DNA of 64,000 nt, taken from NCBI GenBank assembly GCA_963669175.1, contig OY769902.1, positions 2,432,001 to 2,496,000 of the forward strand. The letters run 5' to 3'. Source of the stretch: a bacterium (lineage in GTDB: Bacteria > Electryoneota > Electryoneia > Electryoneales > Electryoneaceae). Under the pieces are notes generated by a model. The model was not told the origin of the DNA and did not search any database. It saw nothing but the letters and a program-made list of their open reading frames with translations. This document shows positions 1 through 21,119 of the stretch, one piece after another; within the stretch, counting starts at the first letter, position 1; every line of letters begins with the position of its first letter. A program made the position numbers and the translations under genes.

Positions 1-319
1 CATCGGTATGCAGATGCGCCCCGGTCGGGAAACGCAACAGAGCAGGATCGGTTTCCGATTCACGTTCCAGCACGGCAAGTACGAAGTTCGGTTCACCTGT
101 GCTGATGAGTACCGTATCGCCCTCGGACGGTTGCAACAGGCAGCTTGCAGCGAGGTAACATTTGCCGATACCCGCATCGGTACGCACCAGGAAAAGTCCG
201 TTTTCATGCCCGATAACAGTACCGTGTTCCAGCCGTACGACTGTCTGTGCCGGAGTCGTGAGGATCGCATCCATGAGCGTGTCCTCCTTGTCTATCGAAA
301 GGTTGTTCTGGTCGTTCAT
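1..319 (-). CDS. DUF3540-family protein (T6SS TagC-like accessory), partial, runs off left edge
   Basis: Not in the ORF track. ATG at 319-317 overlaps the TGA of the upstream gene (ATGA). Translation MNDQNNLSIDKEDTLMDAILTTPAQTVVRLEHGTV...YLAASCLLQPSEGDTVLIS...VLAVLER carries the A-S-C-L-L-x-P-x-x-G-D-x-V-L motif typical of DUF3540. The position after two pentapeptide genes fits. Confidence 0.75.
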   Translation of the reverse strand, partial: MNDQNNLSIDKEDTLMDAILTTPAQTVVRLEHGTVIGHENGLFLVRTDAGIGKCYLAASCLLQPSEGDTVLISTGEPNFVLAVLERESETDPALLRFPTGAHLHTD

Positions 320-1371
320 GAGTTCACCTCAAAATCTTCTGCTTTCTGCAACTCTTTGTTGGTGCCCAGCGCCATGTTCTTGTTGGAACCATCCCAGATT
401 GTTTTGTCCTGCTTGATGCGGTGCAGGTTGGCACGGTTCAGCTTGGTTTTGCTCAGGTTTGCGCCGGACAGGTCCGAATGTGACATATCCGCGTATTCCA
501 TGTTACAGCCGCTGAAATTGGTGTTGCTGCACAGCGCAAGTTTTATCTGTGCCTGGTACAGGTTCGTACCGGAAAAATCAGCCGTAGTCAGGTCCGCTTC
601 GCCCAGGCTCACACTTGGCAGGTCAGCGTTTTTCAACGAAGCGCCTTTCATTTTGCATCCGTGAAAAACAACAGCTTTACCCTTGGCATCATCGAAGGTT
701 GCGCCTTCCAGATTACTCTCGATGAAATTCGCCTGTTGAATCGTTGCCCCGGTAAAAACAGCGCCTGAGAAGTTGGCTTTATGGGCCTGAACCATCCAGA
801 AACGGTTGTCGCTGAAATCATAACCGGACAGGTCCATTTTGTTCAGAACGGTACGGTCATAGGTACAATGATCCAACACCAGGCCGTCTGTCACAGCCTT
901 GTAAAAAACGGTACGTTTCAGATCGGCTTTCAGGAATTGCGTGTTGGTCAAAATGGTTTTAAAGAAAACGGCAAAGTACGCGTCGGTTTCCTCGAATATG
1001 GCATCAGTCAGATCCGCCTTGCCGAAATTGGTATGATGTGTTTTTGACTTGGTGAAGTTCGCGCCGACAAGGTTGGCCTTGACCAGGTTGGTCAGGCGCA
1101 GGTTCGAACGTCTGAAGCTGGCGCGTGGCGCGTTCATCTTGAACCAGTTTGCCTTCTCCAAATCAACATCTTCAATAATCGCTTCGGTCAGGTCGCATTT
1201 CCGGAAGGCTGCTCCTTTGATCTTTGATCCGGACAGGTTCGCACCGGTCAGGTTGCAGCTCATGAACGCCGCTCCGGTCAGGTCCATCCCGGATAAATCC
1301 ATCCCGGTCAAATCCTGCTTTTCGACAAAATCCCCTTCCCGGGTGATTTCCATGATCTCTTCGCGGGTCAT
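316..1371 (-). CDS. Pentapeptide repeat protein (TagB-like T6SS accessory), 351 aa
   Basis: Almost entirely A(D/N)(L/F)xx pentapeptide repeats; translationally coupled to both neighbours. Confidence 0.9.
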   Translation of the reverse strand: MTREEIMEITREGDFVEKQDLTGMDLSGMDLTGAAFMSCNLTGANLSGSKIKGAAFRKCDLTEAIIEDVDLEKANWFKMNAPRASFRRSNLRLTNLVKANLVGANFTKSKTHHTNFGKADLTDAIFEETDAYFAVFFKTILTNTQFLKADLKRTVFYKAVTDGLVLDHCTYDRTVLNKMDLSGYDFSDNRFWMVQAHKANFSGAVFTGATIQQANFIESNLEGATFDDAKGKAVVFHGCKMKGASLKNADLPSVSLGEADLTTADFSGTNLYQAQIKLALCSNTNFSGCNMEYADMSHSDLSGANLSKTKLNRANLHRIKQDKTIWDGSNKNMALGTNKELQKAEDFEVNS

Positions 1372-4300
1372 GATTTCTCCTCCCCGGATGGCAACAGATC
1401 CGTACGACCGTCCAACTTGGTCATTTTCAGGTTCGCCCCCTTGAAATTGGTATCGCCAACCTTGGCGCTCATAAACTCAGAACCGTACAGGTTGGCATTG
1501 GACAGATCCGCGTTGGTAAGTGTCGCTTTCCTGAACGAGCCCAGGTGGATATTCGCGCCTTTCAGATCTGCCCCGGTCAAATCGCTCTTGGGAAACTTGG
1601 TCGCCGGGGCCGGGATAGCGCCGAACTTTGCACCAGGCATGCGTACCGTATCAAAAGTCGTGTTCTTCATTTTCGAGCCGGTGAAATCCGCGTCGGGCAG
1701 ATCGCAATGACGCCAATGCGCCTTGTTCAGCGTGATGCCGGTAAAATCCGGTTTCTTCAGCTCGGATTCACCGCCGATACGGCTGTTGAACATATCCGCG
1801 CCCTTGAAAGACACCGTCTCGCCCTGGGTATTCCAGATCAGGGTTTTGTGCATGGTCGCCTTGTCAAAGACCACTTTATCCATCTTGCTCTGGAACAGTT
1901 TTGCACCGCTGATATCGCCCTCGCTGAAGTTGGATTCAGCGAAATCGGCGTTGGTCAGGAGCGCCTTGGGCACCTTTGCCTTGGTGAAGTTGACCTTTTT
2001 GCAGGTCGCGCCGTCAAAAATGGCTGACGTGGCATCGGCTTCTGAGAAATTGGCTTCAGTCAGGTCGGCATCCTTGAAGATGGCGCGTGTCGCCTTGGTC
2101 TTGGACAGGTTCGCGCCGGGCATTTTCGCTTTCATAAAGACAGCGCTTTCAATCGAGGCGCCTGCCAGGCTTGCCCCGGTCAAGTCCGCTTCCAGCGCTT
2201 TGGCCTTGGTCAGGTCAGCGCCATCCAGCTTGGTGTTCTGCAGGTTGGTATTCAGCAGTTTGCCGTTTTTCATGTCCGCGCCGGAAAGGTCCAGGTTAGA
2301 CAGATCCAGGTTGCTCATCTGGCGTCCGGCCAGGCTTTTACCATCCTTGTGCATCTGGATGACATCTTCACGGGTCAACGGGCCGCAATCATTCAAATCC
2401 TTGCCATGTTTGGCTGCAAGCGCCACAGCCCACTCCGGAAGCGGCAACTTCCCGCCGCCTTTTTCCTTCAAGGCTTTCATGTTGGCCAGCTTGGCCATGC
2501 CCTTGTCGTGACGATCTTTCGATTTCGCCAGCAGGGCGGCGTGTTTGTCAGCCTGGGCGTCTATTTTCGCTTCCAGATCAGGTGTCAGCTTGCCGTGTTT
2601 TTTCAACGAGGCTTTCACCTGCTTGACATTGTCTTCGCTTCCTTTCTTGAGTGCGGCGAAGGGATCATGATCCTTGGGCGGCGGTTGCTTTGCTGCTGCC
2701 AGCATTTTGTCCGCGTCCACTGCGCCGTGCTTCGATACCGCTTTCTTGATATGTTCATCGGTTTGATCACGTTTGGCGGCAAGGGCGGATTTCAGCGCAT
2801 CCCCCTGTTTCTTCATATCTGCTATCGTGTAATCCGCTACGGCTTTCGGTCCGGCAGCACGCACTTCTGGTGGGGGAGTGTTCAGCTTCAGGGTCACCGG
2901 GTTGACCGGCTTCTGCCCATGCGCCGCGATCAGCTTCTGTTTCAGTTGCGGGGGAACCTTGTCATTCTTGAGCATCTCTTCGAAGAAAGATTTCTTTTCA
3001 GCCTTGGCCGCAGCCTTCTTGGTAGCTGCCTTGGCCTGCAACGCCTGTCCTTTTGCCGCCACTTTGCTCATTTTATCGATGGATTTGCTCATCCGTGCGA
3101 ATGAAGCCCTGACCTTCTTCTTATTGACCGGCACATGCGGTGCAATTTCATCTTTCACTTTCATTGTGGTTTCAAAGGAGGCTGAAATTCCTGCCAGCAC
3201 TCCAGCCATTTTCGCTGCCAGCGCCTGGGGATCGAAATTGGGATCCGGTTTGGAAAAGTTGAGACTGAGCAATTGATCCTTTTTCGCTTCCAGTTTTGCT
3301 TTTACCTCAGCGACTTTGACTTTGATATCTTCCGCGTCCTTCTTCGCAGCTTCTATCTTTTCCATGTCGATATCAACCGCACGATCCAGCTTTTTACGCA
3401 AGGCCGCCAGGTATTCTTCCATGGGTTTGGCTGGATCGGCCTGGCTTTCACAGTTCATATGAATGACAGCCACATCCAGCGCTTCGCTGTCCATAACTTC
3501 GGCCATGCCACGGCTGATCAGGATGCCCCGCTCATGATGAGGGAACAGCCAGACCGTGTCCATGTCCATCTTGATTTCCTTATACAGGAAAGGCGCATCG
3601 GCCGGCACAGGATGCGGCGCTTCCGTCTGGTCCGGGGTCTGGAATACGAAAATGCGCGGACGGATGCGTGGGACATTACCACCAACCACCGGTTTGTCCG
3701 GGTGCATACGGATACATTCGAACGGTTCGCCACCTTTCAGATAACCGGGCAACCACTGATCCGTAGGGGCGGCATTGAAGAAGGTCCAGTCCATATCTTC
3801 CGGGTAATAGGGGAAGCGTGTCCTGAACCAGGTATTATCATAGGTACCCAGTTTTTTCTGACGATAGGGATGCATGAAATCAAGCGGGGTGAATAGCGCC
3901 GGATCGGGTTTGTCCGAGGGCGCGCCGATCAGACGTCCGGGCAATTCAACATTGGGCAATGGAAGCAGTTGTTTATCGTTGCCCACATCCACCGGGACAG
4001 TTCCCTTGCCCATCATGTTTCGGGCATCTTCCGGCCCACCAAAAGCATGGGCCGCATCAACCGGCATTTCCGTAAATGGTTCAGGGTCCGTGATTACTGT
4101 AACACCAGCCGTATCCTTCCAATAGCGATCACCGAAAACCTGGAGTTTCTTCTCTACCGGTCCGAACCGGAATTCGACTTCCGATGCCGGAACCGGGGTT
4201 CCGCCGGTTGCATAGCAGTTGCCCTTGACCAAGACTTCGGCGGTCGTTTTCGGCATGCCATGATCCAGGGGGGAATCCGGGATCTCAGCAGGGACCAGCT

Positions 4301-4442
4301 TCCACAAATCCTGTTCCTGTAGCAGAGTCTTGGGGTCATCAAAGGCAAAGAAAACCAGGTGGCTGATGACCATATAGTGCTTATCCTGAATACCGAAATA
4401 GTTCAACAGGATGGACTGATCGTTTTCTTTGATGACTTTCAT
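1368..4442 (-). CDS. DUF2169 + Lys/Ala-rich insert + pentapeptide repeat protein (TagAB-like T6SS adaptor), 1024 aa
   Basis: N-terminal DUF2169 motifs (LDHGMPKTTAEVLVKG, KKLQVFGDRYW, GTYDNTW..TRFPYYPEDMDWTFFNAAP.DQ, MDTVWLFP); ~330-aa C-terminal pentapeptide repeat region. Confidence 0.88.
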   Translation of the reverse strand: MKVIKENDQSILLNYFGIQDKHYMVISHLVFFAFDDPKTLLQEQDLWKLVPAEIPDSPLDHGMPKTTAEVLVKGNCYATGGTPVPASEVEFRFGPVEKKLQVFGDRYWKDTAGVTVITDPEPFTEMPVDAAHAFGGPEDARNMMGKGTVPVDVGNDKQLLPLPNVELPGRLIGAPSDKPDPALFTPLDFMHPYRQKKLGTYDNTWFRTRFPYYPEDMDWTFFNAAPTDQWLPGYLKGGEPFECIRMHPDKPVVGGNVPRIRPRIFVFQTPDQTEAPHPVPADAPFLYKEIKMDMDTVWLFPHHERGILISRGMAEVMDSEALDVAVIHMNCESQADPAKPMEEYLAALRKKLDRAVDIDMEKIEAAKKDAEDIKVKVAEVKAKLEAKKDQLLSLNFSKPDPNFDPQALAAKMAGVLAGISASFETTMKVKDEIAPHVPVNKKKVRASFARMSKSIDKMSKVAAKGQALQAKAATKKAAAKAEKKSFFEEMLKNDKVPPQLKQKLIAAHGQKPVNPVTLKLNTPPPEVRAAGPKAVADYTIADMKKQGDALKSALAAKRDQTDEHIKKAVSKHGAVDADKMLAAAKQPPPKDHDPFAALKKGSEDNVKQVKASLKKHGKLTPDLEAKIDAQADKHAALLAKSKDRHDKGMAKLANMKALKEKGGGKLPLPEWAVALAAKHGKDLNDCGPLTREDVIQMHKDGKSLAGRQMSNLDLSNLDLSGADMKNGKLLNTNLQNTKLDGADLTKAKALEADLTGASLAGASIESAVFMKAKMPGANLSKTKATRAIFKDADLTEANFSEADATSAIFDGATCKKVNFTKAKVPKALLTNADFAESNFSEGDISGAKLFQSKMDKVVFDKATMHKTLIWNTQGETVSFKGADMFNSRIGGESELKKPDFTGITLNKAHWRHCDLPDADFTGSKMKNTTFDTVRMPGAKFGAIPAPATKFPKSDLTGADLKGANIHLGSFRKATLTNADLSNANLYGSEFMSAKVGDTNFKGANLKMTKLDGRTDLLPSGEEKS

Positions 4443-4480
4443 GAAAATCCTCTATCAAGGTCCACTAGTGAATGGATCCA

Positions 4481-7270
4481 CTAGAGCTTGGCCGTTACGG
4501 TATCAACTGTTTTGAGACTTACTTCGGCTTCATGTGTAAGCAACGTCGCCACACGTTGTGTCAGCGCTTCCATCTCTTGCTGCATTTCGCTGGTTTGTTG
4601 CTTGATCAGGTCAACATCCTGCCGTAACGCATGGATTTCCTGACCGCTTTCCATGATTCTCTCAAAGATGGTAAAGGAATGCAGACGGGAAGCCTCTCCT
4701 TTCGAAACCTCTTGGTTTGCCTCGGTGACAATTGGGCTCAGGTCTGAGGCGGCGCCATTCATCTGGCTCTCTTCTTCGGTCAGCTCGTCAATGGCTCCGG
4801 CTACTGTATCCTTTTCACCATCGGCAGTCGTTGTGGCTTCGGCCAGCCTGGTGTTGAGTTCGTTGATTTCCTGCTGCATCTCATCAATCTTTTCGCTGGT
4901 TTCATGCATCTTTTCATGAGCAGCATGAACATCCTCTTTTTCAAACTTCATTTCCTTGAAGTCAAATTTGTATTCATTGGCAAAACCGCTTACCATTTTG
5001 AGAAAATGCCCGAGATTTACACGTTCTTCCAGCGCACCCACGAAAGCAAATTCATTAAGAATCACTATCTTTATATAGACACCGCAGTGTATGGTAAACT
5101 CACCTTTGGTGTTGATGATAACGCCACGTTTTTCGGCCTCTTCTTCTTCCTCATCTTCGTCTTCGTCTTCGTCTTCGTCTTCTTCCTCCTCGTCATCATC
5201 ATCGTCGTCGTCGTCATCATCATCATCATCATCGCCATCATCGCCACCGTCGTCATCACCACCGTCGTCATCGCCGCCGTCGTCGTCGCCACCGTCGTCA
5301 TCGCCACCGTCGTCATCGCCGCCGTCGTCATCGCCGCCGTCGTCATCGCCGCCGTCGTCATCGCCGCCGTCGTCATCGCCGCCGTCGTCATCGCCGCCGT
5401 CGTCATCACCGCCGTCGTCATCGCCGCCGTCGTCATCACCGCCGTCGTCACCTTCGTCGCCGCCACCGCCGTCATCGCCGCCGTCGTCATCGTCGCCGTC
5501 GTCATCGCCACCGTCGTCATCGCCACCGTCACCACCTTCGTCGCCGCCACCGCCGTCACCGTCTCCATCATCCCCGGGGTTATCCAAGCTCCCTTCATCG
5601 TCATCATCTTCCGGGGCTGTGGTATCCATGGCCGAGACACTTTGATTTGACGGTTTATCATAAGCTCCTTGTGCAGGTGAAGCATTATCTGGACTGGAGT
5701 CGGAATCGTCGTCATCTCCTCGCGGATCGAATTTGTAGCCGATGGTCATGAATGTCTTCTGGTTGGGGACATGGAGGTGCATATGTTGGGAGCCCTCTTT
5801 GTCCTCCATGTGCATTTCATTTCCCGATCCTGTTTTCATCTTGCCCTGGGTCTGGTTGTCACCGGTGACCATACTGGCTGTTTCCGGGTTGGGCACCGTG
5901 CCAAGGATTACTGGTTTATCGGGATTACCGTCGATAAATCCTATTGTTACTTCGGTATCTTTGTGGAGTGGGAAATGCCAGCCGTGATCTGATCCTGCGT
6001 ACGGTTGCATCATTCGTAAATAACAACTTGCTTTCCCGCCGCTGAGTCCTGACTGATCAAAGGGCATTTTTACCTTGTAGCGTCCCTGCTCATCCAGTTC
6101 CGCATATTTCCCGCTTCCGGCAGCATCAATCTTTGCCTGAATTGTTCCATATACCCTGGTTGCATCTGTTTTCTTTTCAGGACGAAACTGCACTTCTGCC
6201 GGGATTGCGGTAAAACGGCAACTGAAGCGCTGTTTCTGCTCGCCGTCGCCATCATTCACGCTGACTCCGTCCAGTAGGTGGATAGCATGGCTTCCTTCCA
6301 GATGGACATCAGTGACCATATAGCTCCGGTTCATGTCCTCCCGGAAGTGATCAAACAGGGTGAAGGTAAAACCGGTACGGATTCCTGTTGCTGTGCTTTC
6401 GCCATGATAGAGGTCGCGACGACACAACCATTCTTCACGTCGGATCCTGGCCAGACGATTGCCTTGATCAGGGGTCTTAAAATTCTCGCCATATGAGTAC
6501 ACCATCCCCATTCCGGCCGCATCAATAGCTGATTCGGCTGTCAGGTCCAGCAACGGGGTTTCGTAGTTATACCCCTTGAGCTGAACTTTGCCCGGGATGA
6601 GACGACGCTTGTGACGGAAATTGAGGATTACCTGCTCACGTTGGAGTGTGTCCATCCCTGAAGGGGGGGAGTAGCGCAGTTGAGGCGTCTGGGCAACCGG
6701 CTTGTGAGCAATGCGGGTGTCGGTGAAAACAACACGCTCAACCGGACCATCCTGCTCGAAGAAATAATAAATGCCTTCAAACTCAAGCCATCTGTGCAGG
6801 AAATGCAGGTGGCTTTCATTGTACTGGCAAACATATTCATACGTTGGATACTCATTTTGCAGTCGGATGTCGTAATCCTGACGGGTGAATTTTGCGTCTT
6901 TCAGGATATCTTCCAGAATCTGCTTGATGGATTTGTTGAGAAAGATCTGGTTGTGGCGTGTATTGGCCAACCACCAGAGACGTGGAACAAGCTGTACTTC
7001 ATAGAGGTATTTGTCCTTCAATTCCCTGAGATGTAACGCAGAAGCGGTGATGCCATGATAGTGAATATCTTCTGTCGCTGTCTTGATTGTGATCGTGGCA
7101 TGCTGATTTACCACCGAATCCAAGTCTATATCCGGATTGTCAGAGATCAATGTGAGCGTGAACTCGTACGGCACAGAGAGCGCTTCACGCCCTTTCAGGT
7201 CAACGACTGTAAACGTGTTGGCTGGCAGTTTCCCGACGGAAAAATCAAATATTTTATCAGTACTCAGCAC
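4481..7270 (-). CDS. vgrG: Type VI secretion spike protein VgrG/TssI (third in operon) with polyacidic insert
   Basis: gp27/gp5-like motifs (GREALSVPYEF, YVCQYNESHLHFLHRWLEFEGIYYFF, ELDEQGRYKVKMPFD, MQPYAG..HGWHFPL....EV...F.DG.PD.P); GTG start with GGAGG RBS. Confidence 0.92.
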   Translation of the reverse strand: MLSTDKIFDFSVGKLPANTFTVVDLKGREALSVPYEFTLTLISDNPDIDLDSVVNQHATITIKTATEDIHYHGITASALHLRELKDKYLYEVQLVPRLWWLANTRHNQIFLNKSIKQILEDILKDAKFTRQDYDIRLQNEYPTYEYVCQYNESHLHFLHRWLEFEGIYYFFEQDGPVERVVFTDTRIAHKPVAQTPQLRYSPPSGMDTLQREQVILNFRHKRRLIPGKVQLKGYNYETPLLDLTAESAIDAAGMGMVYSYGENFKTPDQGNRLARIRREEWLCRRDLYHGESTATGIRTGFTFTLFDHFREDMNRSYMVTDVHLEGSHAIHLLDGVSVNDGDGEQKQRFSCRFTAIPAEVQFRPEKKTDATRVYGTIQAKIDAAGSGKYAELDEQGRYKVKMPFDQSGLSGGKASCYLRMMQPYAGSDHGWHFPLHKDTEVTIGFIDGNPDKPVILGTVPNPETASMVTGDNQTQGKMKTGSGNEMHMEDKEGSQHMHLHVPNQKTFMTIGYKFDPRGDDDDSDSSPDNASPAQGAYDKPSNQSVSAMDTTAPEDDDDEGSLDNPGDDGDGDGGGGDEGGDGGDDDGGDDDGDDDDGGDDGGGGDEGDDGGDDDGGDDDGGDDDGGDDDGGDDDGGDDDGGDDDGGDDDGGDDDGGDDDGGDDDGGDDDGGDDDGGDDGDDDDDDDDDDDDDDEEEEDEDEDEDEDEEEEEAEKRGVIINTKGEFTIHCGVYIKIVILNEFAFVGALEERVNLGHFLKMVSGFANEYKFDFKEMKFEKEDVHAAHEKMHETSEKIDEMQQEINELNTRLAEATTTADGEKDTVAGAIDELTEEESQMNGAASDLSPIVTEANQEVSKGEASRLHSFTIFERIMESGQEIHALRQDVDLIKQQTSEMQQEMEALTQRVATLLTHEAEVSLKTVDTVTAKL
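5138..5720 (-). repeat. Low-complexity D/E/G coding tract within vgrG, including ~13 tandem 15-bp units encoding DDDGG (about 5243-5447)
   Basis: Plus-strand (gccgccgtcgtcatc)n with synonymous variants, bordered by (tca/tcg/tct)n trinucleotide runs encoding poly-Asp and poly-Glu. Confidence 0.95.
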
Positions 7271-7273
7271 TTT

Positions 7274-9592
7274 TTATCCCTCCTCGAGAATTTCTGCCGT
7301 AACCGAATGGAGTGCACTCATTGCGCTCTGCAATGTTGTCATCAATTGCTGCATCTCTGCCATTTGTGACTTGATCGTACTCACTGCTGTTTTCTGGCCG
7401 GCTACTTCTGTGTTCATTTCAGCCATTTCATCAACACAGGTTTTCATACCGGCCTCATTTATCCGGATTGTGTCCAGTGAGTCGGCTATCGTAGTCTTAA
7501 GATCATTCAGATATTCCTTTGTGCCATCGATTTTTTCCTTCGCTTGCGTCATCTTGGTTTCCGCGCCCGCAACCAGGGAACGTGAACCTTCCAGCCGTTC
7601 TTCCGTCTCAGCCACTGTCTGTTTGATCCCATCAATCTTGCTGGTTGATTCGGAAATCGTTTCTTTCGTTTCGCTGATATTTGTTTTTAATCCATTTACT
7701 TTATTATGAAGTTCATTCATGTCGGTGTGTACCCATTTATTGTCCGTATGGCTGGTGCATTCCAGCTCATCACGGCGTCCTCCAAGGAAACGCAGCATGA
7801 ACGGGGTGTTGATTTTTTCCTCAAAGCCACCGATAAAGACCATCTTTTCAATGAGGGCCAGGCTGTTTTTAGTAGCGGCTTCAATCTCCAGCTTGGCGCC
7901 CGCCCCAAGGGTGATGCCATGTTTTTTCAAGTCAGGCGCAAGGTCAAAATTCTTATGCAGGTTGTAGAACCACTTGGCAATGGTCTCTAGGGCTTCCCCT
8001 TGCGCCTGGGATGACTGTTGATCTGTATACATTCCCGGCGGAGGATCGTTGGGAGCGCCGATGCGTAAAAAAGAACTTGTCGCCGGGACATGGAACTGTA
8101 TGCGTTCTTCGCCCTGCTTATCTTCGAAATGCAGCTCGTTCCCTGAAGATGACCGTAGCCGTGAACGTGTCTGGTTGTCTGAATCAACCAGGCTGGGAGA
8201 TCGAGGATTTGGTGCGCTTCCGGCGATGATAGGCCGATCCGGGTCGCCATTGGTGAAAGCAATCAGGACTTCCGCGCCACGATGCAGCGGCATGTGCATG
8301 CCATGTCCGGAACCACCATAAGGTTGAATCCGTCGCAACCAGGTACTCGCTTTACCATCCTTACGGTCGGACAGATCGAATGGGAAAATGACTTTGTAAC
8401 GGCCCTGTTCATCCAGTTCCGCGTATTGACCGCTTCCGGCAGAATCGATCCAGCCCTGTATGGTGCCGTTGATCCTGGCTTTCGGGGTTTTTATCTCCGG
8501 ACGGAACTGAATATCGGATGGAATCGCCGTAAACGTATTCCTGTAATAAGGCGCCTTTTCAACTTCTGAAAGTTCGTTCTTCAGTCCGGCCACAAAGTAA
8601 GCGACCTGGTCACCTTCCATGTGGATGTCAGTTGTCAGGAAAGAACGATTCAAAGCATCACGATAGTGTCCGGTCATTTCAAAAACGAAACCGGGCAGGA
8701 TATAGGGGACAGAACTTTCCCCGTAGTACGTATCCTTTCTACAGGCCAGCTCTTCGGCACGGATCTTCGCCAAGCGAGTCCCTTCGTCCGGGGTTAGGAA
8801 GTACTCCCCGTAAGTAGTCATCTCGCCACGCCCGTTCTGATCCACATCGGCTTCCCCGATCATCGGGAGCGTCGGTTTTTCAAAGTTGTAGTCGCGGAGA
8901 GTTACTTTCTGAGGAATGAGTCGTTTTCGCTGACTGAAAACTCGAACGACCTCATCACGATGCAGGTTATCCAGGCCAGATGGGGTGGAGTATATAACCT
9001 TCGTGCCTTCTGATGCAGGCGCATGAGCTGTGCGTGTGTCGGTAAAGATGACCTTTTCGGTATCCTGACTGTGGTCGAAATAGTAGTAGATACCTTCACG
9101 TTCGCACCAGCGATTGATAAAATTGAAATGGCTTTCGCCATATTGACAGACAAACTTGTGACCGGGATGATCCTGCTGCAAGCGGAAATCATAGGCAGAT
9201 GATTCAATACGTGCGTCTTTCAGCACTCCGGACAACATTGTCTTCACATCCTGATCGAGGAATACCTGGTTGTGATGGGTATGGGACAACCACGAAAATC
9301 GCGGGGCCAGTTCCACGGTAAACTGGGCATATTCCTGGACAGTACGGTCATATTCCGCATGGGTTACGATCCCGTGGAAAGTCACATCCTGGTCGTCTCG
9401 ATGGATTATAAAACGAGCCGGACGATTGACCAGTTTTTCCGGGTCCATCGTGGCATCCGTAGTCAACAGGTGAATGGTGAAATGATACGGCTTGGATAAT
9501 GCCGCTTCTCCTGTGAAACGGACCACGAAAAAACTGTCATCTGTTCCGCTGCCTGAATAGAAGCTGAATTTTCTGTTGACAAGAATACTCAT
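7274..9592 (-). CDS. vgrG: Type VI secretion spike protein VgrG/TssI (second in operon)
   Basis: FVCQYGESHFNFINRWCEREGIYYYF, ELDEQGRYKVIFPFD, QPYGG..HGMHMPLHRGAEVL..F.NGDPDRP; heptad-periodic C-terminal tail. Confidence 0.92.
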   Translation of the reverse strand: MSILVNRKFSFYSGSGTDDSFFVVRFTGEAALSKPYHFTIHLLTTDATMDPEKLVNRPARFIIHRDDQDVTFHGIVTHAEYDRTVQEYAQFTVELAPRFSWLSHTHHNQVFLDQDVKTMLSGVLKDARIESSAYDFRLQQDHPGHKFVCQYGESHFNFINRWCEREGIYYYFDHSQDTEKVIFTDTRTAHAPASEGTKVIYSTPSGLDNLHRDEVVRVFSQRKRLIPQKVTLRDYNFEKPTLPMIGEADVDQNGRGEMTTYGEYFLTPDEGTRLAKIRAEELACRKDTYYGESSVPYILPGFVFEMTGHYRDALNRSFLTTDIHMEGDQVAYFVAGLKNELSEVEKAPYYRNTFTAIPSDIQFRPEIKTPKARINGTIQGWIDSAGSGQYAELDEQGRYKVIFPFDLSDRKDGKASTWLRRIQPYGGSGHGMHMPLHRGAEVLIAFTNGDPDRPIIAGSAPNPRSPSLVDSDNQTRSRLRSSSGNELHFEDKQGEERIQFHVPATSSFLRIGAPNDPPPGMYTDQQSSQAQGEALETIAKWFYNLHKNFDLAPDLKKHGITLGAGAKLEIEAATKNSLALIEKMVFIGGFEEKINTPFMLRFLGGRRDELECTSHTDNKWVHTDMNELHNKVNGLKTNISETKETISESTSKIDGIKQTVAETEERLEGSRSLVAGAETKMTQAKEKIDGTKEYLNDLKTTIADSLDTIRINEAGMKTCVDEMAEMNTEVAGQKTAVSTIKSQMAEMQQLMTTLQSAMSALHSVTAEILEEG

Positions 9593-9625
9593 GGGTGTTT
9601 CCTTGTATTCTAACAGTCCACCGGA

Positions 9626-11893
9626 TCAGTCGCGTTCAAACAGCGCTGCGGTTTCCATATTGGTAACGTAGTTGTCAAAACCACATTCAAATGTTTCCTG
9701 TTTGATCGCATCGGCCTGCACTCGCATTGTCTTTATCTGTTCCTTCATTTCAGCCGTGCTGTCTTTCAATCCCCTGGCCAGCGAAACATTTTCGATTACT
9801 TTTAATTCTTCATCTGAGATCTTGGACATAAGCTGTTGAATTTCTTCAACAGTTCCAGCCAGTGAATCCTTGGTCTCGGACATTTCCTGCTTTGCTGCGA
9901 CAATTTTGTCTCGCTGACCATTCACGAGTTCTTTGGTATCAGCAATCTTATCTTTCACACCTACGACACTCTGGCGTGCCGCGGCTACTTTTTCTTCTGT
10001 TTCGGCCACCTTTGTCTTCAAGTCATTGATTTTATTTTCCATCTGGGTGATGTGTTTTTCCACACCCTTCAGATTCATCGTGTGCGGACTCAGGTAACTG
10101 CTGGTAATGCCAAGCGAATACTTGCCGCCAATAAGAACGCCCAGTTCGCCATTGGTGATGATTTTCTGTTCGAATCCGACACACCCCATAAAATTGTTGC
10201 CCAGGATAATTTCGTTGGACAGACCGGCATAGACATTGAGGTTCAAACCAGCAGTCATCTTGAAGCCGTCTGTATCCACCAGCGTCCAGTAAGGGGCGGC
10301 AGTTTCCCCGCCTTCCGATGCCGGGGGGGGAGGATCGTTGGGAGCGCCCATGCGGACAAACGACTTTTTCGCCGGGACATGCATCTGGATACGTTCGCTG
10401 CCTTCCTTATCCTCGAAATGCATTTGCGTCTGGTTGCCGGTTTGAATCACCGATTTTGTCTGGTTTTCTCCCTTCACCTGGGAAGGAGTGGAGGGATTAT
10501 TCACCGCTCCGGCGATGATGGGACGGTCCGGATCACCATCGGTGAAGGTGACCAGCACCTCAGTGCCCTTATGCAAGGGGAAGTGCATGCCGTGGTTGCT
10601 GCCGGTATAAGGTTGCGCCATGCGGATATAACAACTGGCCTTACCATCAGAACGCCCGGACAGGTCAAACGGCATCACAATCTTGTACCGTCCCTGTTCA
10701 TCCAGCTCTGCATACTGTCCACTGCCAGCAGCATCAATCTTCGCCTCGATCACACCCTGAATCTTCGGCTTGGGAGTTTTGCACTCGGTACGGAACTGCA
10801 AGTCACTCTCAATCGCATGGAACACATTCTTGTAATAGGGATTCTTCTCGTGTTCACTCAATCCCTGCTTGATTCCTGCGATCAGGTATCCCGCCTGGTC
10901 GCCGGACATCTCCATGCGAATCGTCAGGTATTTCCGGTTCAGGTTATCACGATTATGCTTGGCAAGGGTGAAAGTGAATCCGGGACGGATGAACGGGACT
11001 GTGCTGGCCGCATGATAGGTGTTTTTCCTGCATTGATAGCATTCGGCGCGAATTTTTGCCAGACGTTTGCCTGAATCCGGTGTTTTGTAGTGTTCGCCAT
11101 AGGTGATAATCTCGCCCAGACCATGATCGTCTACCGACGCTTCCTGGATCAGGAGGTCATCCGGCTTTTCATAGTTGTATTCCACCAACTGCACCTTGGC
11201 GGGAGTCATGTCACGACGCCAGGTGAACTGCTTTACAACCTCATCACGATGCAAAGTGTCCAGACCTGAAGGGGGGAGATAGGTGATGGTGCCGCCCTGG
11301 GGCATGTCCACATGGGCTATCTTTGTATCGGTAAGGATCAGCTTCTCTTCGCTGTCACCCTGCTCGAAGTAATAGTATATCCCTTCTCGCTCGATCCAGC
11401 GATGGACAAAATTGAAATGAGTCTCGTTGTACTGGCAGATATACGGGAAGGTATCATGGTTGCCCTGCAAACGGATATCAAAATCCTTGCTGGTTAAACC
11501 GCCATCCTTCAGGACTTTTTCCAGTATCCCCTTTACATCCTTGTCCAGGAATACCTGGTTGTGATGGGTTAATTGCAGCCACCAGAACTTGGGAACCAGC
11601 ACAGCTTCGTAGAAATAATACCCATTAAACTCACGTTCGAGGGTAAACTCAATTACAATTCCATGATAGGGAACATCCTCGCCGTCTTTACGATGAACAG
11701 TGAAAGTCGCCTTGCGCTGAACAACGCTGTCCAGATCAATATCACCGTTGGTGGAAACGAGTTGGATGGTAAACTGGTACGGTTCCGATAATCCTTCACG
11801 ACCTGTGAAACTGACCACCGCAAAGGTGTCCTCAGTCAACGCAGGTGATTTGGATGAGAATGAGAAGCGCATTTGGGACGTGTTTTCCAGCAT
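9626..11893 (-). CDS. vgrG: Type VI secretion spike protein VgrG/TssI (first in operon)
   Basis: Same VgrG motifs. Start moved to ATG 11893 (MLENTSQMRFSF) with GGGGAG RBS; the ORF-track extension to 12280 overlaps the promoter and the tetR gene. Confidence 0.9.
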   Translation of the reverse strand: MLENTSQMRFSFSSKSPALTEDTFAVVSFTGREGLSEPYQFTIQLVSTNGDIDLDSVVQRKATFTVHRKDGEDVPYHGIVIEFTLEREFNGYYFYEAVLVPKFWWLQLTHHNQVFLDKDVKGILEKVLKDGGLTSKDFDIRLQGNHDTFPYICQYNETHFNFVHRWIEREGIYYYFEQGDSEEKLILTDTKIAHVDMPQGGTITYLPPSGLDTLHRDEVVKQFTWRRDMTPAKVQLVEYNYEKPDDLLIQEASVDDHGLGEIITYGEHYKTPDSGKRLAKIRAECYQCRKNTYHAASTVPFIRPGFTFTLAKHNRDNLNRKYLTIRMEMSGDQAGYLIAGIKQGLSEHEKNPYYKNVFHAIESDLQFRTECKTPKPKIQGVIEAKIDAAGSGQYAELDEQGRYKIVMPFDLSGRSDGKASCYIRMAQPYTGSNHGMHFPLHKGTEVLVTFTDGDPDRPIIAGAVNNPSTPSQVKGENQTKSVIQTGNQTQMHFEDKEGSERIQMHVPAKKSFVRMGAPNDPPPPASEGGETAAPYWTLVDTDGFKMTAGLNLNVYAGLSNEIILGNNFMGCVGFEQKIITNGELGVLIGGKYSLGITSSYLSPHTMNLKGVEKHITQMENKINDLKTKVAETEEKVAAARQSVVGVKDKIADTKELVNGQRDKIVAAKQEMSETKDSLAGTVEEIQQLMSKISDEELKVIENVSLARGLKDSTAEMKEQIKTMRVQADAIKQETFECGFDNYVTNMETAALFERD

Positions 11894-11963
11894 GTGCAAA
11901 CTCCCCGGTTGCAGGCTGAGCGATAGGTCCACAAAATTGGGCGAAGACCTCAAGAGATCATAC

Positions 11964-11992
11964 AGTATAATACACCCTCCCAACCTTTTCAA
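11964..11992 (-). promoter_or_regulatory. Sigma70-type promoter of the vgrG operon
   Basis: Minus strand TTGAAA-N17-TATACT, about 70 bp upstream of the vgrG start. Confidence 0.65.
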
Positions 11993-12082
11993 TGGATACC
12001 CGTCACACCAACCATGAACTTGGTGAACAGATAAAAAAATGCCTCTTGCCGTAAAGGTAACTATGGCATATATTTGAATCAA

Positions 12083-12143: not shown

Positions 12144-12755
12144 ATGCCCAAAGCGTTTTCGGAAGAAGAACAAAACCGGATCAGGGAAGCGTTGTTGGCA
12201 TCAGGGCGGGAACGGTTCACCCGGTTTGGGGTGCGTAAGACTACAGTCGATGAGCTGACCGCGGATGCCGGGATCGCCAAGGGGACGTTTTACCGTTTTT
12301 ACGAGTCCAAGGAACTGTTATACCTCGAGGTTCTCGAAGAAGCGGAAGAACGGATTCGTGGCGGCCTGATGCAGGGGATACGTGACGGAGCAGGGGTGGG
12401 TTATGTGTTGTCGGCATTTCTGCATGGTTTGGAGCAGGAACCGCTTTTCAGCCATATCGTGCAGCCGGGTGAGATGGAATACCTGGTCAGTCGAGTCGGC
12501 GCGGAACGGTTGCAGGTTCACATGAAACGCGACCGTGAAGAGCTGCTGGACATGGTCATAGAAATGCAGCATCGCGGCGCTGTCAGTGAGAACATCGAGG
12601 CGGAAGTGCTGGTCGAGTTGCTGCGCGCCCTGATCGCGATTCCCTTGCTGCAACCACGCATGAACCTCAGTAACAAAGCCGAAGTCTATCAACTGCTGAC
12701 GTCTGCCCTTGAGGCTGGACTGGGACCGGGAGGCGACCATGCTGACCGTGAATGA
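12144..12755 (+). CDS. TetR/AcrR family transcriptional regulator
   Basis: N-terminal HTH: F..FGVRKTTVDELTADAGIAKGTFYRFYESKE.L. Confidence 0.92.
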   Translation: MPKAFSEEEQNRIREALLASGRERFTRFGVRKTTVDELTADAGIAKGTFYRFYESKELLYLEVLEEAEERIRGGLMQGIRDGAGVGYVLSAFLHGLEQEPLFSHIVQPGEMEYLVSRVGAERLQVHMKRDREELLDMVIEMQHRGAVSENIEAEVLVELLRALIAIPLLQPRMNLSNKAEVYQLLTSALEAGLGPGGDHADRE

Positions 12756-15126: not shown

Positions 15127-18100
15127 CTACTTCACCATCACTATTTTTTGTGTTTTGATATAGCTACCGGCCTCCATCGTTACAAAATAGACACCGGAAG
15201 CAACAGGCAAGCCAGCCTGAGAACGACCATCCCAGATAACCTGGTGATAACCGGCATTCATCTTCCTGTTGACAAGTTGTACAACTCTCTGTCCCAGGAC
15301 ATTGTACACAGTTAGTTGTACATCTGCAGTTTTCGGGAGCGCGTAGGGCACAGTCACACTCGGATTGAACGGATTCGGGTATGCCGGTTCCAAAGCGAAT
15401 TCGGTTGGAAGTGGGCGTTCAGCTCGTGTTCTAATCCCATTATAAAAATTGTACAATGCGGCCCGAAGTTCACCGATTCTATCCTCTACTGTAATACGGC
15501 GCGTGAGAGGTGTTCCTAATCCCTGTACATGCAAGCCAGCGTTGATGATTTCTTCTTCCGCCAACTCAAGCAAATCTGTATTCGCCAGTCCAAGCTCAGC
15601 TCGAATAGAATCAGGAACTTCAATATCTTCGAGAAGCATATTTTCGTAAGTATTACGGGCGCTGGGGAAGTCAGCAAACATCAAGTATGAGGAGGCCTTT
15701 GCAAACTCGATTTCCATGTTAAAAGCAGTATCAACCGTATCACAAGGTATTCCATCCAAATAGGACGCGATATCGCCTGCATCCTCATTCATTTCTCTTT
15801 TCAGGCAACACATTGCACGTAATGCCGGTGCAAATCTGAGTTCGATAAGTTCATCCAGAATATCCTCAACTTCGGCTTGTGCTTCAGCGGAATCCATCAG
15901 CGAATACGCAAGGTCGAGCATACTCTGTGGACTGTCGTCAACTTCAAAAATCTGCCAATAGACTGAATCAGTATTTGAAGTATTTGTGTTGGCCTGGTTG
16001 CATACAATATATGTTGGAGGACTACTTGTAACGGTGAAGAAATAGTAATTATTAGGAATTTCAGTATAGTCAAAGTTACCATCAGCATTGCCGAAGTAGT
16101 TGCCGGACACATCATGTGTACCCGACTCAAGCATGGCTATCATATAGGTCGCATCTGTGGGAGTGGCATCAGTGGAGTATTTATCTATAAAATCATAATT
16201 TCTATTGTAGAAATTCCAGCTACACCCGTTGTTTACCAAGACTTGTGAATTATAAATATTAGGTAGCATGCCACGTTCCAACTCTAAAGCATTATTGGCA
16301 AGTATCAACTCATTTGAATAAGATCCATTGTTATTAACACTTGTCTGACTTTCTAATAATATTCCGGTGCCAAGATTTTCATAAATATGAGTATATAACA
16401 AATTATTAAAATAACAATCTGATGCATTAATGCCTCTATATGTATTGGGATCATCATATCCATTATATCTTATTATATTTGGATTATTACCAAAATAACC
16501 AGCACGCATATTTACTTGATTTATATTATCTAATTCAATACCATCGTAACCACAATATTGAATCGTATTTCCGTAAAGTAATGCATTGACACCATCACGA
16601 ATATCAACGCCTGTTCGTTCTATATTATACACAATACAGTCTCGAATCCATGAATTGTCACTGCTATAATAGTCGACTATACCATAGTCACAGTCTGCGA
16701 TTTTAGATTCTTGAAATTTTGTGTAATATGAGTACATTTTATATATACCATATGTGCATTGTTTAATTGTGGAATACTTTATATGAAGATCTTCATTTTG
16801 CTGCATGCATGCAACGCCAATATTCGCATCTCGGATATCGCAGTACTCAAGTGTGCTAATTTCGTCCTTTATTCCGCCCTGGAAAATAATTCCATTCCAT
16901 GAAATTCCAGAAGGATTCTCTTCAACAGGATAAAACGAAATTCGCTGACTGGATGTGCCAACAGCCACCATGCGACCAAACACCTTAATCATATATTTGC
17001 CATCAAACAGTACTCGTGTTCCTGGAAGAATTGTCAGCGTGACACCATTAGAAACAGTCACATTCCCTGTTATTCGAACCGTGCCGCTCCAGGTCGTATC
17101 CGAGGCAATTGTACCTGATAATCCAGCAATTTTAGGACGAGCACAGATGATCCGTCCTTCACCAGCTTCTAATTCAATAAAATCCATGGTATCAATACCG
17201 CAGTCATATTCAAATGAGTCTATTACCTCTTCACTAATAACATCAACTATTTCCCATGTTGTACCGTTCAACGGATCGTTAAGACCACTACTTTCAGACA
17301 AAAACACAAGCTGAATATTCTGATCACCGGCAGCAATGAAATCATCGCCCGAAGGTTGATGTGTCTTTGTGTTCACAAGATAATAATACTCTTCATTTAC
17401 ATTCTTTTCCGGCCATTTGTAGAAACCTACATATATTGTCGAATTATAGCAAAAGATAAAATCTTGATGGTAGTTGTGCCCATCCGGTCCATTATAAACA
17501 TATTCTTGATCGCCGATAATATCGTACAATTGAAATCGATAATCACGGTGACCAATACAATAGTCTATTGGAGGATATGTAGCGTTATCGCCATTTATGT
17601 CAGTGCAATGAACCCTATTTGTTGCTTCATCGTAATAACTATTATTGTCAAATAGATCCTGATAATATGTTTCAGGATACAAAGCTCTTTTCATAATTTG
17701 TTCGTGTGAATTACATGCTGTAATCCATGACAAGTTCCGAATATAGGCCAATTCTTGCCTAATACTATAACGAGAATAATTGCCGTTCGGGCTATAAAGA
17801 TGTGATATATAATCATATGGTGCTTTAGAAATTTCATAAACTGCATCTTCTCCCACATTAGTGTCGTAATAAGGATAATGTAGTATATTCTCTGGATTAC
17901 TTTCTGTCCATGGTTTTCTTAAGTTAGTTAGACTATTTGTGATATAATCAGTGCCATCCAAAGCTCCGTACCACAACATATTATCTCTAGCTTCATTATT
18001 ACAAACACTATCAATAATTGATCGCGTATAGCCATCAGGCTCACCAATAGCGTTTAAGGTGCCATAATAATAGGTTGAGGCTGGCGAATACATCATTAAT

Positions 18101-19305: not shown

Positions 19306-19340
19306 AACCCCCCCTTTTGTACACTGAAAATTGTTTTCTT

Positions 19341-21119
19341 TTATCGAACCAGCGTTACTTTTCTTGCTACGGTTGCATTGGTCGCAAGGCTGCGAAGTTG
19401 AACCAGGTACACACCAGAAGCATACTCGTTCGCCTGCCAGCGCCAGTTTCCCCGGCCGGATTGGGATACCTGTATCGTGTCTTTATGCACACTTTCACCG
19501 AGAAGATTGAACACGGTGAATTCATACCGGCCCGGCGCATCAATGTCATACTGTACGGTTACCGAAGAGTTGAAGGGATCAGGGTAGGCATTTACAATCG
19601 AAAAAGCCCTGGGAGAGTTAACTATGTTTGGAGACTCTTGTACCGGGTAGTCTTCTTCGGAAACCACCGTTTGTGTCATCAGGAATGCGCCGAAATAGCT
19701 ACCATCAGATTGATAGGCACAATACCAAGCCGTCAGAAATGTATCCGGAGCGCTTTTTATTGTACATAATCGGTCTGCTGGATAGATAGCGGGATTACAT
19801 AAAGAATCCGCTTCAATACCCCAGGGAAGTTCTCCCTCCCGGGATACCATCTGCGCATATGGGAATATTTGACCACGCTGGTCCCTGAAAGTGAACAACT
19901 GATAATAAGGTTCGGCAAACATTTGTGTTGCATGAGCATAAGTAACTTCACCTACATCCCATGGGGACGGGTATAACGGTTGACCATCGTAGGAACATAT
20001 ATATAGATGATTTAAATATGTTATTTCAGGATTAAATGTCAAACATACGATATATACAAAAAAACCATCTGTTGCGATATCAGCATTGCCTGTAAAACAC
20101 TGCACATCGAATGACGGATCATCAGACAACTGTCCGCCGAGAAGGAGGGTTCCGTGGGGACCATTCCGGACCAGTCCGTCCGGCCCAATATAAAAGTAAC
20201 GAAGCTCATCCACGCTTCCATTGCCGATACAATACCCGCCATTGGGAAAAGCCACTACATTGTAAGAATGGCAACTGTAATAATGTTCATTCTCTTCATC
20301 ATACGTGCTTCTGTGAATGATCGTCGGATTGTCTTCCCAGAAAACCTGCCCGTTAAGATTGACATATCGCGCCATCAGGCTGTCATGAATTTCCGTAAAA
20401 AAAGCCACACCATTGAAGGGCGATGTTACCGCGCGGCAGGTTCCCACCATGGCATCCAGATCAGGAGATACCCGGACATTGCGCCAGACCACTTCGCCAT
20501 CCGAAGTGACTCGATGCGCCATCATATACGCTATATCCTGACCATTTTCCACAGTTCCATAGTAATGCCCAACAATGATACCACCAACTCCATCAGAGGT
20601 TGTAGCCCGCCACCATTGGGTCTGCATAAAATTGGAATCTGTAGAATCATTCAGTGTGAGTTGAATGCCACGGGGACCGAAGAGACGTTCCCCTTCAGGG
20701 GAGAACCGTTGCACCCAGATGGCGTTGTTTCTTGCTTCGGTGCGTTTGCCCTCAAACACCACATAGACCTCCCCGCCCGGTGCGGGAACACAGGCGCCGA
20801 AATAGAACGCATACATCGAATCGGGATCTGCGACGAAGATGCCCTCTTCCGGCCACAACACTTCGCCGTTCCGGTTGATGTGCTGCACCTTGCATCGGGG
20901 TTCACCTGTTGCATCAGGATCATAACTGGTAAAATATACCAGGTAACACCCGCCGCTACTGTCCGGGACAAGGCCAAAGCGACTGTATATCGCGCTGTTG
21001 TAAGGAGTTACCTGCGTTCCGGAAGGCAGCCACTCGGCAAGCGCTGACAGGGAAATGGTAACAAGAAGGAATGCCACCGAAATGGCGATTCCTGGTTTGT
21101 TGTGAGAAAGATACATCAT
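19341..21119 (-). CDS. Secreted beta-propeller-like protein with T9SS-type C-terminal sorting domain
   Basis: Signal peptide; repeated PDxxGG / VQxxxxxGxxxW motifs; C-terminal AYPDPFNS...ASGVYLV...KVTLVR. Confidence 0.78.
   Translation of the reverse strand: MMYLSHNKPGIAISVAFLLVTISLSALAEWLPSGTQVTPYNSAIYSRFGLVPDSSGGCYLVYFTSYDPDATGEPRCKVQHINRNGEVLWPEEGIFVADPDSMYAFYFGACVPAPGGEVYVVFEGKRTEARNNAIWVQRFSPEGERLFGPRGIQLTLNDSTDSNFMQTQWWRATTSDGVGGIIVGHYYGTVENGQDIAYMMAHRVTSDGEVVWRNVRVSPDLDAMVGTCRAVTSPFNGVAFFTEIHDSLMARYVNLNGQVFWEDNPTIIHRSTYDEENEHYYSCHSYNVVAFPNGGYCIGNGSVDELRYFYIGPDGLVRNGPHGTLLLGGQLSDDPSFDVQCFTGNADIATDGFFVYIVCLTFNPEITYLNHLYICSYDGQPLYPSPWDVGEVTYAHATQMFAEPYYQLFTFRDQRGQIFPYAQMVSREGELPWGIEADSLCNPAIYPADRLCTIKSAPDTFLTAWYCAYQSDGSYFGAFLMTQTVVSEEDYPVQESPNIVNSPRAFSIVNAYPDPFNSSVTVQYDIDAPGRYEFTVFNLLGESVHKDTIQVSQSGRGNWRWQANEYASGVYLVQLRSLATNATVARKVTLVR

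Follow-up and report, generated by a model that had tools for sequence, protein, structure and literature searches.

Three adjacent vgrG genes, coding for the spike protein of a type VI secretion system (T6SS), lie at the left end of a 64,000-nucleotide stretch of contig OY769902.1 (assembly GCA_963669175.1), from a bacterium of the Electryoneota, and raise the question of which machine they serve. The whole stretch, here called the window, is genome positions 2432001-2496000 of a single-contig genome of 5,447,365 bases (G000:C1), and coordinates are those of the window unless given as genome positions. A sequence-only reading of the window had proposed a VgrG-based apparatus working without a canonical T6SS. 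We are highly confident of a different answer: the region holds the complete set of spike and loading genes of a canonical T6SS-i, as a module that has become detached from the core genes. We then consider how one such machine may use three VgrGs.

The spike island and its core gene cluster

In profile searches of the whole genome, Hcp, TssC (VipB) and TssF each had exactly one match, in every case near 4.785 Mb. A scan of the open reading frames (ORFs) against Pfam and NCBIfam places them in a core cluster on the minus strand, at genome 4778303-4797010 and approximately 2.33 Mb from the island. The cluster encodes TssJ, TssK, TssL, TssM, TagF, TssA, TssB, TssC, Hcp, TssE, TssF, TssG and ClpV, with a 105-aa ORF between TssG and ClpV, and a gene for an OmpA-type peptidoglycan-binding protein lies directly upstream. 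No vgrG is present in it. The genome has exactly three Phage_GPD matches, all within the window, and a single match to Tox-PAAR-like (DUF4150), beside the island gene tvpC; PAAR_motif has no match genome-wide. All 13 core components TssA-M are encoded, 12 in the core cluster and VgrG, in three copies, in the window. Since the core cluster is without vgrG and the sole VgrGs and PAAR-like protein are encoded in the window and at its left edge, these hold the genome's only spike, tip and tip-chaperone genes for a T6SS-i that is otherwise complete.

The genes of the TssJ-L-M membrane complex match T6SS-SciN (42.2 bits, cut-off 27), DotU (133.4 bits) and IcmF-related_N (188.5 bits). Because TssJ, TssL and TssM are present, the system is by gene content a T6SS-i and not a T6SS-iii. 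The available text of PMC10781749 describes T6SS-iii as confined to Bacteroidota, as lacking TssJ, TssL and TssM and as using TssN, Q, O, P and R. The system shares with T6SS-iii a host in the Fibrobacteres-Chlorobi-Bacteroidetes (FCB) group, a contractile sheath, Hcp and VgrG, but differs from it in having TssJ, L, M and A and one sheath gene only. The TssN profile has no match in the genome, and a control profile likewise matched nowhere, which makes that search uninformative.

An apparatus without Hcp, sheath or membrane complex was suggested by the window itself. Among 54 ORFs scanned, covering the 64 kb and 20 kb to its left, there is no tss or hcp family, as the sequence-only reading had said of the window, and the single genomic Hcp, TssC and TssF matches lie outside it. 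That reading had itself named an ordinary T6SS-i cluster elsewhere in the genome as evidence against it, and the cluster found here, complete but for vgrG and in the same chromosome, leads us to reject the stand-alone apparatus, which we regard as next to impossible. Phage_sheath_1 has no match genome-wide, so the genome holds no sheath of the extracellular contractile injection system type, and no phage-type sheath or tube genes lie beside the island.

Related loci argue in the same direction. We collected 75 from genome-contig scans and 78 from metagenome-contig scans and annotated them by phmmer with the window genome's own proteins. In these relatives the series vgrG-TvpAB-TvpB-TvpC-PAAR-like usually continues tssA-B-C-hcp-E-F-G-clpV or tssJ-K-L-M, and in loci that extend far enough upstream, clpV or tssM commonly stands right before vgrG. 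Such linked loci occur in Thermodesulfobacteriota, Syntrophales, Acidobacteriota, Deferribacter, Latescibacterota, Caballeronia, Paraburkholderia, Bordetella and Polaromonas. As relatives keep the module joined to the core genes, the arrangement here is a split cluster. A congener of the host (genome G033, locus L011) has exactly three VgrGs, which are orthologous to A, B and C and keep their order, with the same tetR and ABC-transporter neighbours upstream, and the split is therefore old.

The island operon lies on the minus strand and runs from about position 11993 leftwards beyond base 1, with six close-packed genes in the window: vgrG-A (9626..11893, 755 aa), vgrG-B (7274..9592, 772 aa), vgrG-C (4481..7270, 929 aa), tvpAB (tagA/B-like, 1368..4442, 1024 aa; named after PMC13373197), tvpB (tagB-like, 316..1371, 351 aa) and the 5' part of tvpC (tagC-like, DUF3540, 1..319), which is cut at the window edge and runs on to genome 2431627. 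Spacings are 33, 3 and 38 nt, followed by two 4-nt overlaps, and no separate ORF of at least 40 aa lies between the vgrG genes. Each VgrG has a gp27/gp5-like core to about residue 520, a short linker, a beta segment and a heptad coiled coil, to which VgrG-C adds an acidic insert. VgrG-A, B and C score 246.5, 229.8 and 266.1 bits against Phage_GPD, far above cut-offs, and 363, 351 and 340 bits against TIGR03361; all three pass Phage_base_V. Overall they are 41-47% identical (A-B 47%, A-C 41%). VgrG-A, the paralog searched against solved structures, matches VgrG1 chains over residues 19-511. TvpAB combines DUF2169 at residues 21-311 (258.2 bits) with C-terminal pentapeptide repeats (140.1 bits, matches at about 668-1005), and TvpB is a pentapeptide-repeat protein (Pentapeptide, 172 bits). 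The series of three tandem vgrG genes followed by DUF2169-pentapeptide, pentapeptide and DUF3540 genes, read earlier from the letters alone, is thus present in full.

The start of vgrG-A is the ATG at 11893, and a longer frame from a TTG at 12280, which overlaps the divergent tetR, is an artefact, because the alignment with the congener ortholog begins at that ATG. Ahead of the operon stands the sigma-70-like motif TTGAAA-N17-TATACT that the sequence-only reading had called its promoter (minus strand, 11992 to 11964, feature 11964..11992; 71 nt upstream of the ATG, 10 of 12 matches). None of the other promoter-like sites, 13 in all, matches as well; the site count is within chance (11.0 ± 3.6 in shuffles), and as a sequence match the motif is a plausible candidate promoter of the vgrG operon. 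The divergent tetR-family gene, also correctly placed in that reading, lies at 12144..12755 on the plus strand (TetR_N, 37 bits) and heads an ABC-transporter operon with ABC_tran and permease genes downstream; it is a neighbour only of the vgrG operon, and any regulatory role is putative.

Two large ORFs of 551 and 748 aa (genome 4800074-4803972), neither of which has a Pfam or NCBIfam match, immediately precede the OmpA-like gene and tssJ and may belong to the T6SS cluster.

The loading genes, the tip gene and a repeat insert

The whole of tvpC occupies genome 2431627..2432319 and encodes 230 aa. Its window part and the remainder match DUF3540 with 52 and 91.6 bits, together spanning profile positions 2-199, and the gene scores 159 bits in the genome-wide DUF3540 search. 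A DUF4150 or PAAR gene had been predicted to the left of the window, and beyond tvpC we find one at genome 2430686-2431090 (Tox-PAAR-like, 101.8 bits), coding for about 134 aa from its likely start and for no effector domain. Further left follow convergent genes for type IX secretion substrates (Por_Secre_tail), with no tss genes.

This accessory set is, judged by domain families and gene order, the Class III Tvp chaperone system, equivalent to tagA/B-5 to tagD-5 of Burkholderia T6SS-5. The available text of PMC6335564 gives the T6SS-5 order as clpV-5, vgrG-5, tagA/B-5, tagB-5, tagC-5 (DUF3540), tagD-5 (PAAR-like) and tssJ-K-L-M, and the order vgrG, tagA/B, tagB, tagC, tagD is matched here, bearing out the earlier comparison with that system. 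The likeness to the T6SS-5 of B. pseudomallei and B. thailandensis extends to spike-module gene order and domain families, and the window genome shares the core order tssA-B-C-hcp-E-F-G-clpV with the Caballeronia loci. In T6SS-5, however, clpV-5 and tssJ-5 flank the module within the cluster, whereas here it is found at 2.43 Mb, far from the cluster at 4.78 Mb; T6SS-5 has a single VgrG-5 with its own C-terminal domain, and here there are three VgrGs. The C-terminal modules of the window VgrGs showed no significant similarity to those of Caballeronia and Polaromonas relatives (E 0.14-250), a comparison that included no sequence of the B. pseudomallei group.

The Class III Tvp system was defined by Monlezun et al. 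(2026) in Serratia marcescens Db10 and consists of VgrG1, TvpAB, TvpB, TvpC and Paar1. According to the available text of that paper (PMC13373197), TvpAB is a DUF2169 protein with pentapeptide repeats, TvpB a pentapeptide-repeat protein, TvpC a DUF3540 trimer that mimics the VgrG oligonucleotide-binding fold and beta-prism, and the tip a DUF4150 PAAR-like protein. In Serratia, TvpAB, TvpB, TvpC and the tip make a pre-complex in which VgrG1 then displaces TvpC. The locus described here has the same four accessory domains in the same order behind vgrG, and a tip without an effector domain. It differs in having three VgrGs ahead of one Tvp set, in having no vai1-like gene behind vgrG and in the detachment of the module from the core cluster. 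The VgrG C-terminus also differs, being by sequence a heptad coiled coil here and a long beta-prism in the model of Serratia VgrG1. By sequence comparison only, no likeness of the window TvpC to the VgrG alignment is seen (hhalign probability 0.2). The host's FCB-group phylum is not named in the main text of PMC13373197, the appendix of which (S11, S12 and table S5) may cover similar VgrGs or FCB taxa.

Family membership makes the Serratia mechanism the likeliest one here as well. A pre-complex of TvpAB, TvpB, trimeric TvpC and the DUF4150 tip would form first, and a VgrG trimer would then take the place of TvpC. The capped spike would dock on the TssEFGK baseplate and be fired together with the Hcp tube by sheath contraction. 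One set of chaperones and tip would serve all three VgrGs.

Between tvpC and the PAAR-like gene lies a repeat-rich insert of about 536 nt that resembles a miniature inverted-repeat transposable element (genome 2431090-2431626; positions 19090-19626 of locus L007). It contains four direct repeats, each about 41-44 nt long, and inverted arms of 31 nt. A second copy is found at 59496-59621, and a 21-nt motif of the arms occurs at 40 sites genome-wide, often in pairs 125 nt apart. A strong hairpin is predicted for RNA from the insert, its stem being about 28 bp long (-82 kcal/mol, z -6.4), and against Rfam the insert gives a weak match to WsnRNA46 on both strands (44.6 bits, gathering score 65.3). 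In the congener the insert is not there, and tvpC and the PAAR-like gene are just 10 nt apart.

The insert, together with the detachment from the core cluster, could mark an island that has gone out of use and is decaying. We consider this very improbable: the seven frames are intact, the six visible on the congener contig are conserved, the congener's PAAR-like gene is intact, and the core cluster would otherwise be without a spike. The VgrG-A core is 71% identical to its congener ortholog. Synonymous sites between window and congener are at or near saturation, with dS computable for the A core only (2.4), so that only dN is usable; it ranges from 0.22 to 0.27 for the cores and from 0.35 to 0.48 for the C-terminal modules. 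From the intact frames and this pattern of dN, all three vgrG genes appear to be kept by selection.

Several points weigh against reading the island as the complete spike-and-loading module of this T6SS-i. TssJ and TssM pass their Pfam cut-offs, but their matches to the stricter NCBIfam equivalogs, although significant, stay below the cut-off (TssJ 29.9 bits, cut-off 31.6; TssM 323.9 bits, cut-off 388). Neither in the island nor beside the core cluster is there an Rhs protein, a PAAR-toxin or a recognisable effector-immunity pair. The hairpin insert might uncouple expression of the tip from that of the other genes. Finally, it is difficult to see how a PAAR-like cap could sit on the prism tip if, as predicted, an axial coiled coil follows the beta-prism.

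Three VgrGs, their C-terminal modules and the make-up of the spike

The three paralogs are alike in their cores (about 520 aa, 45-55% identical) and dissimilar in their C-terminal regions (19-28%; B against A 28%, C against A and B 19-22%). The C-terminal modules lie on the minus strand at 9629..10288 in VgrG-A, 7277..7939 in VgrG-B and 4484..5146 in VgrG-C. They share one layout, in which a variable linker is followed by about 55 residues of beta-type alternating hydrophobicity (180-degree peak) and then by about 19-21 uninterrupted, proline-free heptads. The heptad part keeps a strict 7-periodicity, with a second, weaker hydrophobic position 3 or 4 residues off. The main position is hydrophobic in 16 of the approximately 19 uninterrupted heptads of VgrG-A, in 20 of 21 in VgrG-B and in 16 of 20 in VgrG-C. 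VgrG-C also carries an Asp/Gly-rich insert between core and module (5147..5710, minus strand; residues 521-708), with 92 Asp and 52 Gly among its 188 residues, encoded by 19.9 in-frame copies of a 15-nt tandem repeat (5238-5530, 89% matches). The C-terminal region of the congener VgrG-C is 36 aa shorter, so the length of this tract probably varies.

A profile search of the C-terminal module against the PDB gave weak matches only. They include trimeric coiled coils, namely EibD (the best, 1.3e-5), a fragment of SadA, reovirus sigma-1 and the tail needle gp26 of P22, and also dimeric tropomyosin chains; further profile matches are to SMC, Rad50 and tropomyosin models and to generic coiled coils. 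Such matches would back a coiled coil only in a compositional sense and not as homology, and it is from the VgrG trimer, not from them, that we infer a three-stranded coiled coil. Run against 1.84 billion proteins, the C-terminal profile has 713 matches at E <= 0.001. Beyond VgrGs, 14 of the best 150 matches were scanned, and almost all belong to generic coiled-coil families; among the 14, one carries Phage-tail_3, one Phage_Tail_Tip, and three have weak, sub-threshold gp58-like matches. A tblastn search of the VgrG-A module against phages found no match, and among the papers listed on coiled-coil C-terminal extensions of VgrG and on DUF3540 and DUF2169, no title or abstract opening describes such a tip. 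Since no recognisable effector was found, the C-terminal modules are probably the best candidates for the functional tip.

In two Syntrophaceae-type loci (L034:10004-12969 and L039:2992-5985) the VgrG core (517-521 aa) and the C-terminal module are separate ORFs about 0.7 kb apart, and the separate C-terminal ORFs (225-230 aa) resemble the window module (E 1e-6 to 2e-7).

A single chaperone and tip set combined with differing C-terminal modules suggests that the paralogs most likely supply one machine with different or mixed spike tips. One form of this, to which we give about an even chance, is that each VgrG, alone or randomly mixed with the others, arms the machine with its own C-terminal tip, the array being a cassette for diversification of payload or target. 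Arrays elsewhere are consistent with it: core identity is 98-100% in L030, 100% in one pair of L015 and 93% in L026, against C-terminal identities of 26-34%, 44% and 57%. In L015, the C-terminal regions share 42-47% identity within the array, and each has a nearer counterpart on another contig (58-63%). Near-identical cores with dissimilar C-termini indicate that the C-terminal module is the diversifying part and that the cores are recent copies or have been homogenised. Against such alternative spikes stand the lack of an immunity or cargo gene beside any copy here, the need for one chaperone set to serve three diverged tips and the generic nature of the coiled-coil profile matches.

To our knowledge, each vgrG of Vibrio cholerae and Aeromonas dhakensis comes with its own effector and chaperone genes, and the vgrG genes there do not form a tandem array. 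Unlike that arrangement, one operon here holds three vgrG genes and one shared chaperone set. What the systems have in common is three VgrG paralogs per T6SS with differing tails, which in those species set what is loaded, according to the available text of PMC8668125.

A more restrictive make-up builds on the 1:1:1 heterotrimer raised in the sequence-only reading. In it, VgrG-A, B and C would form one obligate asymmetric spike with their C-terminal helices zipped together, loaded by the single Tvp/PAAR set. Several features of the island are in keeping with it. The genes are tightly spaced with one chaperone set and one tip protein, the trio makes up the only VgrGs of the genome, and trio and order are kept in the congener. 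The helical parts align gap-free in one heptad register, with a Gly two residues past the main heptad position in all three chains. Exact triples also exist in other lineages, and a heterotrimeric VgrG was reported as required in V. cholerae and tested in A. dhakensis (PMC8668125, available text). The same text traces the apparent requirement in A. dhakensis to effector loading, and under native conditions the Class III VgrG1 of Serratia forms no heterotrimers with VgrG2 (PMC4924876). For Pseudomonas aeruginosa the question of a VgrG heterotrimer was left open (PMC3069435). C-terminal length (median 246 aa over 181 VgrGs) and heptad pattern are moreover family-wide and not specific to the trio. 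A by-eye pattern of complementary small and large residues in the core layers of the coiled coil was discarded as evidence for a heterotrimer because it is not kept in the congener.

Array sizes bear on both forms of the spike. After duplicate removal there are 168 vgrG arrays, of which 110 are complete within their locus; 18 further multi-copy rows are fragmented or cut by contig ends. A single copy is the rule, with 99 complete arrays of one copy, 5 of two and 6 of three, one of the six being the congener's. Such a preponderance of single genes makes the homotrimer the default for the lineage. TvpAB comes after the vgrG array in 99 of the 110. Whole-genome checks show the triples of L015 and L058 to be the sole VgrGs of their genomes and L040 to have exactly five in tandem; counted by genome, G080 and G081 have exactly three VgrGs each, all tandem, and G082 exactly five. 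Since one copy is the rule and arrays of two, three and five exist, a 1:1:1 stoichiometry is not singled out, and this spread of sizes is what a cassette of alternative spikes would allow.

Other genomes duplicate the whole vgrG-tvp-paar module instead, which also fits alternative spikes. An evenly drawn sample of Thermodesulfobacteriota contains seven DUF3540-positive genomes, and VgrG counts were checked in six of them. One, G079, has a single VgrG; the other five have 5, 1, 1, 2 and 1, with no vgrG-only tandem array, and their extra copies carry their own Tvp sets. Further related loci likewise duplicate the complete module.

In a tree of VgrG cores (105 rows), tandem copies group by genome, with support of 99-100 for L015, L028, L030, L040 and L058 and partly for L029, and the window paralogs form one pair each with their congener orthologs, within a clade of six rows (99). 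This grouping implies that vgrG amplification arose several times independently, rather than by descent of one conserved trio. Across independent triple arrays we found no general pattern of three conserved C-terminal classes, with a partial positional correspondence only (L029/L154/L165). Taken as sequence comparisons, the data do not favour an A:B:C heterotrimer over alternative spikes, and we consider the obligate heterotrimer unlikely.

A still more specific proposal is an asymmetric A:B:C spike with a heterotrimeric coiled-coil needle of about 20 nm, one chain of which bears a long polyacidic loop. This hypervariable needle would then take the place of a separate toxin as the payload, contacting the target or acting on membranes, in a T6SS lineage found widely among anaerobic sediment bacteria. 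We hold this to be speculative and rather improbable; if it were true, homogenisation of the cores and diversification of the C-termini would reflect selection on needle specificity.

Three further observations concern the related loci. VgrG and TvpAB lengths are inversely related over 79 adjacent pairs from L011-L172 (Spearman -0.56; related sequences are not independent), with a median TvpAB of 1264 aa beside VgrGs of at most 830 aa and of 932 aa beside longer ones; the window is intermediate, with VgrGs of 755-929 aa and a TvpAB of 1024 aa. Beside the vgrG/PAAR module, many relatives have another sheath-like gene, divergent and about 525 aa in length, at L121:8278-9852, L027:13372-14955, L030:1275-2843 and about a dozen other loci (VipB, 100-117 bits; one copy also with a VipA-like N-terminus), and the window genome has none. 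The T6SS cluster of L073, on a contig filed under a Synechococcus metagenome-assembled genome, is nearly identical to that of L074 from Polaromonas sp. YR568 (branch lengths 0.003-0.03), and the Synechococcus assignment looks like a binning error.

Host, origin and significance

The host is, as first suspected, not a proteobacterium, and it belongs to the FCB group: many neighbouring proteins carry type IX sorting domains, and the nearest named relative of its FabF is that of Candidatus Electryonea clarkiae of the FCB group (66% identity), followed by Bacteroidota, Ignavibacteria and Calditrichota at 56-60%. Among 79 species genomes of the host's GTDB phylum, DUF3540 occurs in two, the window genome and its congener, and TssC in five, distributed over 3 of 55 genera. 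In an unrooted tree of 24 TssC rows, window and congener pair together (Shimodaira-Hasegawa-like approximate likelihood ratio test 99) inside a 13-row clade (97), the rest of which consists of Thermodesulfobacteriota-type sequences and one long-branched genome of the same phylum. Two other genomes of the phylum have distant TssC proteins (48-50% identity). With the module rare in the phylum and TssC nested among Thermodesulfobacteriota sequences, the lateral acquisition suggested by the sequence-only reading is plausible and would date to the origin of the genus or before.

GC content gives no signal of foreign origin (island 51.6%, core cluster 51.0%, genome 50.1%), and a megablast search of window positions 1-12000 against plasmids found no match. 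The rates of DUF3540 in Thermodesulfobacteriota (7 of 201 sampled genomes) and in the host phylum (2 of 79) are too alike to indicate a donor. Similar rates, unremarkable GC and an unrooted tree limit the case for lateral acquisition, and no donor can be named.

The surroundings of both T6SS loci hold other features of the genome. Large secreted proteins with Por_Secre_tail (type IX), of FG-GAP, subtilase, beta-helix and NosD types, flank the vgrG island and the core cluster, at 15127-19305, 19341-21119 and 48891-50672 in the window and at genome 2422695-2430434 and 4765201-4775906. A candidate anti-phage gene at genome 2414821-2420781 encodes 1986 aa with DUF4011, a helicase and an MTES_1575 nuclease (PADLOC PDC-S37, 1405 bits; also Hhe). 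Two proteins with a helix-turn-helix and an M78 peptidase match PD-Lambda-2_B at about 119 bits (window 26902-28848 and genome 4776592-4777710); one adjoins clpV, and the other adjoins a DUF4145 protein matching PD-T7-4. A gene at 21468-23336 on the minus strand encodes a 622-aa protein in which a cyclic-nucleotide-binding domain is fused to a class II fumarase/aspartase (Lyase_1 and FumaraseC_C).

For the biology of VgrG proteins, the result removes a false lead: the VgrGs here are not a weapon that works independently of a T6SS. It extends Class III Tvp spike-loading to a candidate phylum of the FCB group, in a host also rich in type IX secretion substrates. The shared-chaperone triple vgrG array and the fast-diverging C-terminal modules are mildly novel points, and they offer two comparative leads: vgrG-only tandem arrays of this T6SS lineage share one chaperone set, and conserved cores are joined to fast-diverging C-terminal coiled-coil modules. 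If the C-terminal module is the functional tip, this would explain how effector-poor clusters act.

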